This document shows, in pieces, positions 21,294 to 25,070 of a stretch of 64,000 bases of DNA; position 1 is the first letter of the stretch, and each line of letters begins with the position of its first letter. The DNA lies in assembly GCA_041665305.1 (NCBI GenBank), contig JBAYJD010000004.1, forward strand, positions 27,383 through 91,382. Reading direction: 5' to 3'. This stretch comes from Elusimicrobiales bacterium. GTDB taxonomy: Bacteria; Elusimicrobiota; Elusimicrobia; Elusimicrobiales; UBA9959. The position numbers and the translations under genes are program-made. Below the pieces are notes generated by a model that was given only the letters and a program-made list of their open reading frames with translations, had not been told where the DNA came from and ran no database searches.

Positions 21294-22319
21294 TCACTGT
21301 TGTCCTTTCCCCCAGACGGCGGCAAAGATCTCCTGGAACCTTTTGAAATATGTATGTTCGTTTACCGCGCGGGAACATCCGGAAGAGGCGATGGAAAATC
21401 GTTCTTTCTCATTGTCGAGGTAATATCGTATAAGTCCGGCGCAGTCCTCCGGCGTGGTATAAACCGAAACTTCTTCGCCTATCTTCAGATAACGCTCCAG
21501 GCCGGGAACATAATTCGTAAGCTGAAAACCTCCGGCGAGCGGGATCTCAAAATTGCGGGCTTTGATCTGCTCCGCCGTCTTCGGCGAGCGCAGAAATCGC
21601 GCCAAATTCATAAACGAACCCAGCGCGAACCTGAGATCCCTGCTGACGCTGTTGGAAAGGTTCAGGTTTATCCGGCTCTCGCGGAAGATCTGCGACATTT
21701 CCTCAAAACTTGCCTTGCCGTTCGGCCAGCCCCGGCCGAAGCATTCCACTTTTACGCCTAGCCCGGCCAGCGTTTTAATAAACCAGCCCCGGACCTGGTT
21801 ATACGCCCCCACAAACGAAACTTCATAACGGAATTCGGACCCGGAAGGCATGGGTCCCGCGCAAGCGCCGAAGATCTGCCCGGCCCATTGGGTTAAGAGC
21901 GGTTCTACGCCAAGCTTCCGGTATTTTGCGACACTGAATAAGTCCGTGGTGCAGACATGCGTGAAATGCGGGGCAAGTTTTGAGGAATACCGTTCAAAGC
22001 GCCAGGTATCATCGCCGAACCAGGCGCAGGTGGCCCATTTTGCCTTTAAAAAGTCCAGGGTCCCGGCGTCGAATTGATCGGTATAAGGCAGGAAGAAGAT
22101 CAGGTCGGGGTTAAAACTTTCCGCTTTTTCCATAAGCGCCCTGCGCAAGGCGGGGATATCGTGAAGATAAGCGTCGTACCAGAAGGGTTCGACATTTCCC
22201 ACAAGCTTTTTAAAATTCTCATAAAAGCACGCCGCATCTCCAGAAGGACCTCGGGACTTCTCCCCATAGTCCCATTGCATCAGTACGGCCAGTATTTTTT
22301 TATTCCATTTGGGAGTCAT
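21294..22319 (-). CDS. CgeB-like glycosyltransferase (DUF3880/Glyco_trans_1_2-type)
   Basis: The C-terminal part (ARNFEIPLAGGFQLTNYVPGLERYL...SGCSRAVNEHTY) resembles the CgeB spore-maturation/glycosyltransferase family. Confidence 0.55.
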   Translation of the reverse strand: MTPKWNKKILAVLMQWDYGEKSRGPSGDAACFYENFKKLVGNVEPFWYDAYLHDIPALRRALMEKAESFNPDLIFFLPYTDQFDAGTLDFLKAKWATCAWFGDDTWRFERYSSKLAPHFTHVCTTDLFSVAKYRKLGVEPLLTQWAGQIFGACAGPMPSGSEFRYEVSFVGAYNQVRGWFIKTLAGLGVKVECFGRGWPNGKASFEEMSQIFRESRINLNLSNSVSRDLRFALGSFMNLARFLRSPKTAEQIKARNFEIPLAGGFQLTNYVPGLERYLKIGEEVSVYTTPEDCAGLIRYYLDNEKERFSIASSGCSRAVNEHTYFKRFQEIFAAVWGKGQQ

Positions 22320-22330
22320 TCTTAACCTTG

Positions 22331-22361
22331 CTCAATATTTCCGCAGGCAGCTTTTGAGCAT
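22331..22361. repeat. 31-bp direct repeat, copy 1 (duplicate of the colD-like 3' end)
   Basis: ctcaatatttccgcaggcagcttttgagcat is identical to 23894-23924. Confidence 0.95.
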
Positions 22362-22394
22362 TGCCCGGGCCGGAAACAGATTATTTCAAGCGGT

Positions 22395-23171
22395 CTAAAA
22401 CTCTAAAGACTTGATATAGGCCTCAAACATCCTGACTTTGTTACTGTCTCCACTGTTGACAAGAAAGGGTTCAAGGTCTCCCGCCAGCTCATTAAGATTT
22501 AATTCGGAAGTTCTGGCCAGAAGCCGTTCTTTTAGGCCGCGCCCGTCGGGAATGCCTGTTTTGTCGCGAAGATATCGGTAATTCGGTTTAGTTTGAGGCA
22601 TGAGGAACGCGATATCATAAAAATCCCTTCCTTTGGCGCGGGGACGGTTTAACGCCGCGTAAATCTTCTGCGATAAAAGAAGATCGATCGGGGAGGCATA
22701 GATCTGGGTAAACACATCGAATTTATTAAGGATCTTCAGGTCCCTCGCGTAATCAAACGCATGAGGAACGGTATCCATTTGTATCAGGATCTTTTCGTCA
22801 CGCAGGCCGGAAATATCGTTATCGAACAATACTCCGGGGAACCTGATATAGGACCGGTACGCCCCCTTAAAGACATTCTTTATTTCCACCGCATAGCCTT
22901 GCAGTTCCAGACCGCGTTTGACCGCCCCGGCAAGATCCGCGAACGCCCGCTCTGTAAGACCGAAATTATCAAAATCCAGGTCTTCTGAAAACCGATTGTT
23001 GCCGTAAACTATACGCAAAGCCGTTCCGCCAAGAAAAGCCAGGCCGCGGCCGGTCTCAGTATTAAACACTATTTCAAGTATCTTGCATTGTAGGTATTCC
23101 CGCAGGATATTACGTTTAAAAGGCCGTTCCCTGGGCGGATAATACTTTTCAATGTTCACAAGACTAAGCAT
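22395..23171 (-). CDS. abiEii: AbiEii/AbiGii-family nucleotidyltransferase toxin (type IV TA)
   Basis: AFLGGTALRIVYGNNRFSEDLDFD nucleotidyltransferase motif. The gene starts 3 nt downstream of the antitoxin gene. Confidence 0.8.
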   Translation of the reverse strand: MLSLVNIEKYYPPRERPFKRNILREYLQCKILEIVFNTETGRGLAFLGGTALRIVYGNNRFSEDLDFDNFGLTERAFADLAGAVKRGLELQGYAVEIKNVFKGAYRSYIRFPGVLFDNDISGLRDEKILIQMDTVPHAFDYARDLKILNKFDVFTQIYASPIDLLLSQKIYAALNRPRAKGRDFYDIAFLMPQTKPNYRYLRDKTGIPDGRGLKERLLARTSELNLNELAGDLEPFLVNSGDSNKVRMFEAYIKSLEF

Positions 23172-23174
23172 GGT

Positions 23175-23795
23175 TTATAGATCCAGGAACCGGCCGACTC
23201 TGGACGACAAGGCTCGCACGCCGAAAGCGTCAAGATATTTATTAAGCCTGCTCGTATCGGCTTTAGCTTTAAACTCGGCGGAATTAAATCGTAAACTTTC
23301 AAAATCCACGGCATCTTTTATGCGCGGATTAAGATATAAAAAATCAAGCAGGGCCTTTTCAATTTCAGCCACCAGCACCCGGCGGCCATTTTTCTCTCTG
23401 AGTTCATATCCGAACATCAGCGAAGGCTTGAGCTGCTTATAGGTAAAAACGCCTATGTTTGTTTTAAACTGATTTGTTTTTTGCGAAGTCACCGAAGTTA
23501 TGGCATAAACGGCTTCCGGAATAAGCCCATACAGAGAAAGCGCCATCTCAAGAGAAATATATGACGGCTTATAGATAGTATTGGCGATCAGAAACAACTC
23601 ATGTTCATCTAAACCGGCATCAGAAAAAATATAGTAGCCTCTCCTGACCTTATTTATATAACCTTTTGCCATCCATTCGTTTATGCGCCTGAAATCAAAA
23701 TCTGGCGCAATTTTTCTAACATCGGCCAGACCAAAAACATCGAAGCCTTTTAATTTTTCTTTGAAATTTAAAAATTTCATATCATATAATTCCAT
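23175..23795 (-). CDS. abiEi: AbiEi-family antitoxin / transcriptional regulator
   Basis: 206-aa protein upstream of abiEii with an AbiEi-like N-terminal wHTH region (FDVFGLADVRKIAP...RINEWMAKGYINKVRRGYYIF). Confidence 0.7.
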   Translation of the reverse strand: MELYDMKFLNFKEKLKGFDVFGLADVRKIAPDFDFRRINEWMAKGYINKVRRGYYIFSDAGLDEHELFLIANTIYKPSYISLEMALSLYGLIPEAVYAITSVTSQKTNQFKTNIGVFTYKQLKPSLMFGYELREKNGRRVLVAEIEKALLDFLYLNPRIKDAVDFESLRFNSAEFKAKADTSRLNKYLDAFGVRALSSRVGRFLDL

Positions 23796-23831
23796 AACAT
23801 GTGTTTTTTAACATGTTATGGAATTATATCA
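23784..23831 (-). promoter_or_regulatory. abiEi promoter/operator: 19-bp perfect inverted repeat containing the extended -10 and the start codon
   Basis: The arms at 23784-23802 and 23811-23829 (atataattccataacatgt / acatgttatggaattatat) are separated by an 8-nt loop. On the minus strand the upstream arm carries TGATATAAT and the downstream arm carries the abiEi ATG. Confidence 0.5.
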
Positions 23832-23893
23832 TAATTAAGCCTACACTCAGAATTTTCCAGCTCAATATATTTCGGGCGTACCGTTATACCATA

Positions 23894-23924
23894 CTCAATA
23901 TTTCCGCAGGCAGCTTTTGAGCAT
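23894..23924. repeat. 31-bp direct repeat, copy 2 (functional 3' end of the colD-like gene)
   Basis: Encodes MLKSCLRKY plus the stop of the colD-like ORF. Identical to 22331-22361. A degenerate partial third copy (ctcaatatatttcgggcgta) lies at 23861-23880. Confidence 0.95.
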
Positions 23925-25070
23925 GTCCAGGTCGGCTTCGGTAAGCTCCGGGTAATTGCCGAAGTAAAAGCCGCATTCGTGCAGGAACTGGCCGCCTTTA
24001 AGCTGCCAGTCGCCTTTAACATACTTGGCGAAAAAGGGCTGATGCTGCATATTGCCCGCTATAACAGGACGGATTTCCACACCGTCACCGGAGAACTGCT
24101 CGATGTATTTGGCGCGCAGTTCCCTGGTCTTGCAAAGCACCGGAAAAGCGAAATTGGAAACGAAGGAAAGATGTCCGTGCTTTATCGGCAGCAAGTCCGG
24201 ATTATTATTGACCTCTTCTTCAAGCGCCAGATAATTTTTCTGACGGACCTGACAATTTTCATCCAGGTATTTAAGCTGGGTTAAACCCAAAAATCCTGTG
24301 ATCTCGGTAGGCCGCAGATTAAAGCCGAGGTCATAAAAAGTATATTTGGCCTCAAATTCGCTCTTTACGCCGTATTTTTCCCGCAGGCGGCGCTGGGCCG
24401 AGAAGTTAAGGTTGCGGTCCCAACCGTTGGCGCGGGTTATACGCAGCATTTCGTCCAGCTCGTCGTCATCAGCGCAGGCGCAGCCGCCTTCTATGGTGGA
24501 CATATGATGAGCCACAAAAAAAGAAAAAGTGGAGGCCAGGCCGAAATTACCGGTTTTCCCCCCTGGCAGGACCGTGCCGAGGGATTCGCAATTATCCTCT
24601 ATGAGCAGGACGCCGTTTTTTTTGCAAAGTTCGCGGATCTCACCCAGGTCACCGGCGAACCCCAGCGCGTTGGTGATAAAAAAAGCGTTCAATTTTACCT
24701 TTTTAAGGGTTTCGGAAAGGTTGGCGGCCATGCAGTTAAGCGTCTGAGCCTCGCAGTCCACCGGCACGGCTTTCATGCCAAGCTGAAGGATGGGCATAAC
24801 ATTGGTGGACCAGGTAAGGGCTGAAAAGCCCACGGTATCGCCGTCTTTAAGACGGCCCAGATTCTTAAGGGCCTGGAGCAGGGCCAGGTTGGCGCTGCCG
24901 CCGCTGTTAAAAAGGATGCAATGCCGCCGCCCCTGCGCCTTGGCGAAAGCCTTCTCGAACTCCCGGCATTTTTCGCCCATGCTAAGGATTTTGGCCTTAA
25001 GTATAAAATCCACCAGTTCTTTTTTGGTTTCATACTCGTTCAGGAATGTGTTCTTCATTAACGGGATCAT
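23895..25070 (-). CDS. colD: GDP-4-keto-6-deoxy-D-mannose 3-dehydratase-like PLP/PMP enzyme (ColD-like, DegT family)
   Basis: DegT-fold protein in which the Schiff-base Lys position is His (TFSFFVAHHMSTIEGG). LIEDNCESLG and RANGWDRNL blocks match my recollection of E. coli ColD. RBS GAAGGA. Confidence 0.7.
   Translation of the reverse strand: MIPLMKNTFLNEYETKKELVDFILKAKILSMGEKCREFEKAFAKAQGRRHCILFNSGGSANLALLQALKNLGRLKDGDTVGFSALTWSTNVMPILQLGMKAVPVDCEAQTLNCMAANLSETLKKVKLNAFFITNALGFAGDLGEIRELCKKNGVLLIEDNCESLGTVLPGGKTGNFGLASTFSFFVAHHMSTIEGGCACADDDELDEMLRITRANGWDRNLNFSAQRRLREKYGVKSEFEAKYTFYDLGFNLRPTEITGFLGLTQLKYLDENCQVRQKNYLALEEEVNNNPDLLPIKHGHLSFVSNFAFPVLCKTRELRAKYIEQFSGDGVEIRPVIAGNMQHQPFFAKYVKGDWQLKGGQFLHECGFYFGNYPELTEADLDMLKSCLRKY

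Follow-up and report, generated by a model that had tools for sequence, protein, structure and literature searches.

The AbiE cassette and its flanking duplication

We analysed a 64,000-nucleotide stretch of an Elusimicrobiales genome (hereafter the window; contig JBAYJD010000004.1, assembly GCA_041665305.1), in which a two-gene AbiE toxin-antitoxin cassette stands in a glycan operon between a colD-like gene of the DegT family and a gene for a CgeB-like glycosyltransferase. The cassette is bracketed by two exact copies of a 31-bp sequence, CTCAATATTTCCGCAGGCAGCTTTTGAGCAT (Table 1), a match that arose in 0 of 100 shuffles. A preliminary description of this DNA had reported both copies, had read the last nine codons and the stop of the colD-like gene in one of them, and had placed the other 11 nt before the CgeB-like start; the exact match, the translation and the coordinates all agree with it. 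Copy A is contiguous with the intact colD-like gene, and copy B is an orphan colD 3' end, beyond which the native GCAAGGTTAAGA spacer and the ribosome-binding context of cgeB are kept. The target reading frame is thus preserved, as had been claimed, and so is the translation context of the gene downstream. Removal of the insert together with one repeat copy would leave a 12-nt colD-cgeB spacer, in line with the empty junctions of relatives described below.

Across the 2.9-Mb genome, with up to three mismatches allowed, the 31-mer occurs only at these two positions. Exact scans of genome and metagenome contig collections gave no match to the 31-mer, although this genome and its close kin possibly lie outside the scanned records. 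In the genome-wide search that the preliminary description had proposed, the 31-mer thus proved not to be a common genomic repeat, and no second copy of the cassette DNA was found either. With imperfect edges allowed, the repeat search gives a duplication of 44 nt (39/44 identical), with 8 of 13 positions matching beyond the 31-mer (p about 0.006). A degenerate third repeat, reported earlier at 23861..23880 on the minus strand, was rejected as a chance resemblance (local-alignment shuffle p about 0.09 over the first 100 nt of the insert).

The inserted DNA differs in composition from its surroundings, as had been noted from its AT-richness. Its GC content of 0.435 falls in the lowest 0.4% of 1.5-kb genome windows, compared with 0.570 for the genome and 0.51-0.52 for the flanking genes (the glycan operon as a whole lies ~5 points below the genome). 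Judged on base composition, the insert is of foreign origin. It holds two open reading frames (ORFs) only, both AbiE, in agreement with the earlier account of an abiEi-abiEii pair with a promoter of its own. The AbiEii translation contains the nucleotidyltransferase motifs GGTAL and SEDLDFD, and 3 nt separate the abiEi stop from the abiEii ATG. AbiEi itself had no Pfam match at E<0.001. Translation of abiEi probably begins with the ATG at 23780 (MKFLNF..., 201 aa) rather than with that at 23795 (MELYDM...), a choice backed by homologues that begin MKFIDF, by the PADLOC alignment and by an ENA gene call of 201 aa. With this start, the right arm of the predicted promoter inverted repeat would lie in the 5' leader and not in coding sequence. 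Two homologous cassettes (G021 and G211) share the TATAAT and the ACATGTTAAAAA..ACATG palindrome. We therefore regard the inserted pair as a self-contained type IV toxin-antitoxin, or abortive-infection, operon with its own putative autoregulated promoter. No terminator was detected downstream of abiEii and the cassette is co-oriented with the operon, so that transcriptional read-through into cgeB is plausible.

Regarding mobility functions, the repeat search gave no inverted repeats at the insert ends, the insert carries no transposase ORF, and the profile search returned no PF00589 or PF00239 match on the 95-kb contig C4; the earlier statement that integrase and transposase are missing thus holds. 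The five recombinase genes of this genome, three for tyrosine and two for serine enzymes, lie elsewhere, on C5, C10, C15 and C28. When compared with integron cassettes, the contig is without a tyrosine recombinase and the cassette has its own promoter; no dedicated attC model search was made. The closest plasmid relative is 48% identical, the search among phages gave no match, and uncultured bacteria are the only known source of this AbiE clade.

Table 1 Features of the AbiE insertion and related loci (window positions unless a genome and contig are given)
Feature	Position	Strand	Remarks
Direct repeat copy A	23894..23924	-	colD-like last nine codons and stop (MLKSCLRKY*) plus one base; contiguous with intact gene
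Direct repeat copy B	22331..22361	-	orphan colD 3' end; 11 nt upstream of cgeB-like ATG
Inserted DNA	22362..23893	-	1,532 bp: 98 nt leader/promoter, abiEi, abiEii, 33-nt tail
Putative AbiEi operator/promoter	23780..23833	-	23-nt inverted repeat, 96% complementary, 8-nt spacer, extended -10 TGATATAAT
abiEi, antitoxin/autorepressor gene	23175..23795	-	longest ORF 206 aa; PADLOC AbiEi E=8e-66, aligned from residue 6
abiEii, nucleotidyltransferase toxin gene	22395..23171	-	258 aa; PF08843 E=3e-17; PADLOC AbiEii E=2.5e-92 over residues 1-255
colD-like DegT-family gene, upstream target	23895..25070	-	intact, 391 aa; PF01041 E=2e-57
CgeB-like glycosyltransferase gene, downstream target	21294..22319	-	intact, 341 aa; PF13524 E=2e-27
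DHQS-like gene		-	first in transcription order within 18.6-27.2 kb
Fcl-like epimerase gene		-	between DHQS-like and colD-like genes
GT2 gene		-	next after cgeB-like gene in transcription order
493-aa ORF		-	after GT2 gene; no Pfam match
AbiE pair and DUF4143/AAA_14 ATPase gene	G000:C8:35556-38842 (L204:3556-6842)		follows epimerase, DegT, Bac_transf run; precedes capD-like gene
AbiEi-AbiEii pair	G000:C4:9029-10514		outside the window; between WbaP-like Bac_transf and GT4 glycosyltransferase genes
AbiEi-AbiEii pair	G000:C27:35567-37056		between genes for glutamine synthetase and an unassigned 571-aa membrane protein

Empty sites and other cargo at the colD/cgeB junction

The preliminary description had predicted that relatives would show colD directly abutting cgeB, and this empty junction was found in six related genomes (L031, L033, L036, L037, L038, and G026), where the ATG of cgeB follows 8-13 nt after the colD stop. 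The empty state is thus spread over several genera and reaches into a second family, with at least six genomes showing it; the filled state was seen in this population only. This comparison shows the locus to be a true insertion with target duplication that preserved both neighbouring genes, and the tight junction to be the ancestral state.

The same junction carries other cargo in further relatives. In G002, of the same genus, a different two-gene insert of ~0.86 kb occupies it (L018:3023-3735, G002:C16). Its ORFs encode a 107-aa minimal nucleotidyltransferase-like protein and a 133-aa protein with an RNRTVH (Rx4H) motif. By eye we take these for an MNT-HEPN toxin-antitoxin pair, for which PADLOC gave weak matches to the first ORF and none to the second. 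One extra epimerase gene lies at the junction in L030 and L034, and 3 kb of DNA in L041. Two members of the same genus, G003 (L019:2881-9565) and G001 (L020:3139-9824), have 6.8 kb of glycan genes there; by sequence inspection, the products are a 711-aa membrane protein, a split transketolase, an epimerase-GT2 fusion and a methyltransferase. Neither the G002 insert nor the other junction cargo in relatives showed a flanking duplication. Together, these arrangements identify the colD/cgeB junction as a hotspot for cargo.

Every gene between 18.6 and 27.2 kb of the window lies on the minus strand. When compared with Elusimicrobiota orthologues (L028-L041), the colD-like protein shares 87-93% amino acid identity, and the CgeB-like protein only 57-66%. 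The junction is therefore a sharp boundary, with conserved sugar-nucleotide genes on one side and variable transferase genes on the other, as is typical in O-antigen-like loci, and homology between recombining strains would naturally end at such a place.

Support for the assembled structure

Over 13 kb, three assemblies of this population share 100% identity. Both the JGI/NCBI contig (51 kb) and a MEGAHIT k141 contig (127 kb) show the order colD, repeat, cassette, repeat, cgeB. A k=31 Logan assembly, whose record names SRR6484324, is interrupted precisely by the repeat, as would be anticipated; its cassette contig measures 1,592 bp and has 30 nt of repeat on either side. Because a k=141 contig cannot pass a 31-bp repeat without spanning reads, the linear arrangement is real; an empty allele or a circular form may coexist with it in the population. 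The flank-joined sequence of the empty allele would be ...GACCTGGAC + 31-mer + CAAGGTTAAGAATG..., and the junction sequence of the circle would be ...CCCGGGCA + 31-mer + TATGGTATAACGG....

Flanking repeats at homologous AbiE cassettes

To evaluate the wider AbiE family, we surveyed 80 metagenome loci with AbiEii relatives of 57-82% identity, which were reduced to 50 cassettes by clustering at 95% identity, and searched the 400 nt to either side of each gene pair for exact direct repeats of >=19 bp. As controls, 256 equally sized windows of the same contigs were used. Exact flanking repeats were present at 10/50 cassettes (20%), an upper bound for true target duplications since some of the repeats are not clean ones, and at 1/256 controls (0.4%; Fisher p=6e-8). 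With mismatches allowed, ~25 loci had flanking repeats, of 19-672 bp and 80-100% identity. The repeats differ from locus to locus and overlie the 3' ends of upstream genes, terminators or the starts of downstream genes. The unit they bracket is compact, consisting of a leader of 80-155 nt, the two genes and a tail of 0-113 nt. Sharp-edged exact repeats of 19-35 bp occur at L115, L124, L155, and L177/L178. Other repeats are long and imperfect, for example 672 bp at 89% identity, or the relic copy on C8 of the present genome with its different C-terminus. This suggests that one copy arrived with the cassette, which would fit homology-anchored recombination.

With regard to the element itself, no conserved termini or inverted repeats were found beside the flanking repeats in 15 cassettes. 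Homology to the G021 cassette (69% DNA identity), whose context is unrelated, begins only at the promoter palindrome and ends with the abiEii stop. The closest cassettes, in G211 and on the groundwater contig L108 (78-79% DNA identity), are at other targets: that of G211 (78%) lies amid duplicated segments of a capD-like gene, and that of L108 between epimerase and sugar-transferase genes, with no repeat. These results divide an earlier proposal, that the insertion was either site-specific or duplication-generating. Duplication is borne out by the six empty sites; site specificity is not, given the unrelated sites and repeats of the homologues. The likeness to island integration at tRNA 3' ends, also drawn in the preliminary description, had to be given up, since unrelated sites, repeat lengths of 19-672 bp and compact units without a recombinase are a misfit with a conserved att core.

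Other AbiE pairs and repeat-flanked segments in the genome

The genome holds three further AbiEii genes, and thus four AbiE pairs in total (Table 1). The insert on C8 is flanked by a 45-bp repeat (41/45 identical) that duplicates the 3' end of the Bac_transf gene, and the copy on the right has decayed into a relic that carries a separate stop codon. The Bac_transf/capD junction is empty in G006 (C50), of the same genus, and in G001 (C105) it carries the same cassette type with a 44-bp repeat of 93% identity and a truncated abiEii. On this evidence we regard the C8 case as a second, older insertion with target duplication in the same genome. No flanking repeats were found at the pairs on C4 (outside the window) and C27. 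Three of the four pairs lie in glycan loci, and in this group glycan-operon gene junctions are a recurrent site of AbiE cassettes, which is an observation and not yet a statistic.

We also noted repeats of other kinds. Four segments of 1.2-1.8 kb (C5:67998-69579, C7:54767-56028, C17:45396-47226, C55:16260-18153) lie between exact direct repeats of 45-140 bp. Each contains one ORF of about 290-370 aa, and the C5 segment is 1.4 kb from a tyrosine recombinase gene (C5:70950). They may be paralogue duplications or further repeat-flanked inserts. A ~70-bp repeat (GGCCGAACCGAAGTTGCGCGAAACGCGCAGGCTCCAATGAACCTGTAAGTTTCGCGCAAC...) stands at the start of C76, C56, C31, and C23, with second, internal copies 8.6-20 kb downstream, and is probably a dispersed element that breaks up the assembly.

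Possible mechanism and alternative explanations

We consider it fairly likely that a foreign AbiE operon entered the colD/cgeB junction through a recombinase-free insertion with long target duplication, driven by host recombination. Incoming cassette DNA would have been integrated by the recombination functions of the host, anchored on the conserved colD gene, and no dedicated integrase or transposase would have been used. This could have occurred by homology-facilitated illegitimate recombination anchored on colD, or by a single crossover of a circular copy that carried short target homology. Selection would then have retained only events that left both neighbours intact, as a duplication does and a deletion does not. 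Inserts with flanking repeats are prone to deletion, but addiction, in which cells that lose the antitoxin gene pay a penalty, would keep this one in place. As an addictive cargo would make repeat-mediated deletion costly, addiction may also account for the occurrence of this signature at toxin-antitoxin and restriction-modification units. A role for host recombination would fit the variable repeat lengths in the family, the many imperfect long repeats in which one copy resembles another allele, and the location of the site at the end of a conserved block. Both ComEC and DprA are present in the genome.

Several points weigh against this account. ComEC and DprA occur in most bacteria and are weak evidence of competence. 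The mechanism was inferred and not directly observed. All empty-site comparators are just ~78-84% identical in colD DNA and thus belong to other species; a conspecific empty allele was not found, and exact-protein look-ups with colD, cgeB, AbiEi, and AbiEii led to no more than three assemblies, all from the present population and all 100% identical. In sliding windows, colD was ~80% identical to all 13 orthologues compared, and a donor tract was not distinguishable. Within the family, some flanking repeats are multi-copy local repeats or whole-gene duplications, and at L136 a third copy lies 2.7 kb away. A sharp-edged 31-bp repeat of 100% identity would fit a staggered-cut duplication or an att core equally well, and 31 bp is barely above the 30-bp threshold that Furuta et al. 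used for excluding site-specific events.

Among the alternatives, an att core would imply a tyrosine or serine recombinase acting in trans, and the cassette would be a non-autonomous element of the CIME or IMEX kind, its attP resembling the 3' end of colD. Its appeal lies in the sharp edges and exact identity of a repeat of typical att-core length, in the regenerated target ORF, in the weak additional similarity outside the core (39/44) and in the five recombinases encoded elsewhere in the genome. We nonetheless regard it as unlikely: the 95-kb contig has no recombinase, the closest cassettes (G211 and L108) sit at different targets, repeats at homologous cassettes are unrelated and 19-672 bp long with no conserved element ends, and relatives carry other cargo at the same junction without such a repeat. 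Quite unlikely, too, is a target-site duplication by staggered cuts, in which a trans-acting enzyme would nick the DNA ~31 bp apart. Candidates would be a transposase-like or Cas1/casposase-like integrase, or an IS1630-type enzyme, of the kind that produces long variable duplications. Identical copies with sharp boundaries on both sides would be expected of such an enzyme, and the exact 19-35-bp repeats at L115, L124, L155, and L177/L178 have the same appearance; however, terminal inverted repeats and conserved ends are lacking, the repeat lengths vary >30-fold across the family with many imperfect over hundreds of bp, and no transposase lies in or beside the compact units.

Two further readings concern the history and the reality of the structure. 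It is conceivable that the cassette and both repeats are ancestral and were deleted in relatives, or that the cassette landed between pre-existing copies of the 31-mer, and recombination between the repeats would indeed leave exactly the empty junction of the relatives. We hold this to be very improbable, considering the distribution of empty and filled states over genera and families, the foreign composition of the insert, the orphan copy without a function of its own and the single-copy nature of the 31-mer otherwise. An assembly artefact would require a true genome in which the junction is empty, and besides it a 1,563-bp circle, or a strain variant that shares a 31-mer, misthreaded through a k=31 node. 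The repeat length does equal a common k-mer size, and the Logan assembly breaks there and releases a cassette contig; two contigs of 127 kb (k=141) and 51 kb (JGI), 100% identical to each other here, span both junctions, and such an artefact is hardly credible.

Classical element types were also considered. A DNA transposon or insertion sequence was rejected given the missing terminal inverted repeats and transposase and the 19-672-bp range of duplication lengths across the family. An integrase-type element of tRNA or gene 3' ends fits poorly: contig C4 has no integrase, and related cassettes have unrelated flanking repeats or none in place of a recurring att core.

Comparison with known systems

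Insertion with long target duplication was reportedly described for restriction-modification units by Nobusato in 2000 (Gene 259:99). A later account is that of Furuta, Abe and Kobayashi (2010, NAR 38:2428; PMC2853133; reviewed in PMC3874152), in which such units, without mobility genes and mostly in naturally competent species, are inserted with target duplications of 46 to >400 bp. The repeats sometimes overlap the 3' end of the upstream gene, by 15 bp of HI0105 in the H. influenzae cases (PMC2853133). Compared with average genes, restriction-modification units have flanking repeats significantly more often, and double-strand breaks made by the cargo were proposed as the common cause (PMC2853133; PMC2875022; PMC3874152). 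Their definition includes a genome with the empty site, in which the repeated sequence is present once and the flanks adjoin, an insert of <20 kb that holds the entire addictive unit without a mobility gene, and a duplication of >30 bp that is not multi-copy (PMC2853133). At the present locus we find empty sites in other species, a 1,532-bp insert without a mobility gene and a 31-bp repeat in two copies, whose length just passes; the cargo is AbiE and not a restriction-modification unit. Further likenesses are a compact, addictive unit without terminal inverted repeats, the duplication of a unique local sequence that overlaps the 3' end of the upstream gene, and flanking repeats that are far commoner than in controls. 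Differences are the size of the duplication, which at 31 bp exact or 44 bp imperfect lies at the short end when set against 46 to >400 bp, and empty sites that are not conspecific. In addition, AbiEii is a nucleotidyltransferase and not a DNA cutter, so breakage by the cargo cannot apply; this argues against cargo-made double-strand breaks as the driver and points to host recombination with addiction-based retention.

It is possible, though we propose this tentatively and with some doubt, that long-target-duplication insertion is a general recombinase-free route of invasion for addiction modules, both toxin-antitoxin or Abi cassettes and restriction-modification units, whose shared trait would be post-segregational killing rather than DNA cleavage, and that gene junctions of glycan operons are preferred in this Elusimicrobiota group. 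The notion of glycan operons as landing pads draws on three of the four AbiE pairs here, on the cassettes in G001, G002, G211, and L108, and on the MNT-HEPN pair at the same junction in G002. If true, the flanking repeats could also let the cassette leave as a circle and enter other strains wherever they have homologous sites. The movement of two-gene toxin-antitoxin and defence cassettes from chromosome to chromosome without a transposase or integrase is poorly understood, and this locus is a clean and datable example. Conserved/variable junctions of surface-glycan operons appear to collect defence and toxin-antitoxin cassettes, and as these operons probably encode phage receptors, the locus bears on how defence genes and receptor diversity travel together.

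Known AbiE systems include those of Lactococcus pNP40 and Streptococcus agalactiae, with the related MenAT of Mycobacterium. The present cassette resembles them in its order of a DNA-binding antitoxin and autorepressor, AbiEi, followed by AbiEii (DUF1814, PF08843), and in its promoter inverted repeat, features known here from sequence alone; a mode of insertion is not part of the family description. Prophage e14 and phage 21 integrate into the 3' end of icd and regenerate their target. Islands likewise enter the 3' ends of genes, such as SGI1 at trmE (PMC8409611). The repeat at our locus also equals the 3' end of its target and leaves the ORF intact, but those elements need an integrase and a conserved att core, whereas no integrase is linked to the present cassette, and the sites and repeat lengths of related cassettes are unrelated.

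Homology-facilitated illegitimate recombination in naturally transformable bacteria was reportedly shown by de Vries and Wackernagel (2002) and by Prudhomme et al. (2002), and Palmieri et al. (2013) are said to have described recombinase-free 'unconventional circularizable structures' flanked by direct repeats. These parallels would account for foreign DNA beside a homologous anchor without an enzyme of the element, and for the ability of repeat-flanked segments to circularize; unlike our case, they are laboratory or resistance-gene observations that are not known to be linked to toxin-antitoxin cassettes or to give such duplications. In the literature searched, the one mention of direct repeats flanking a toxin-antitoxin pair was made in passing for mycoplasmas, as 'scars of previous recombination events'; according to the same source, an AbiE pair lies inside the vpma surface-protein locus (PMC8562856). 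That search gave no paper that describes long-target-duplication insertion for AbiE or toxin-antitoxin cassettes. Our comparison supports the view that the colD/cgeB locus extends a mode of insertion known for restriction-modification units to another cargo, probably by way of host recombination.

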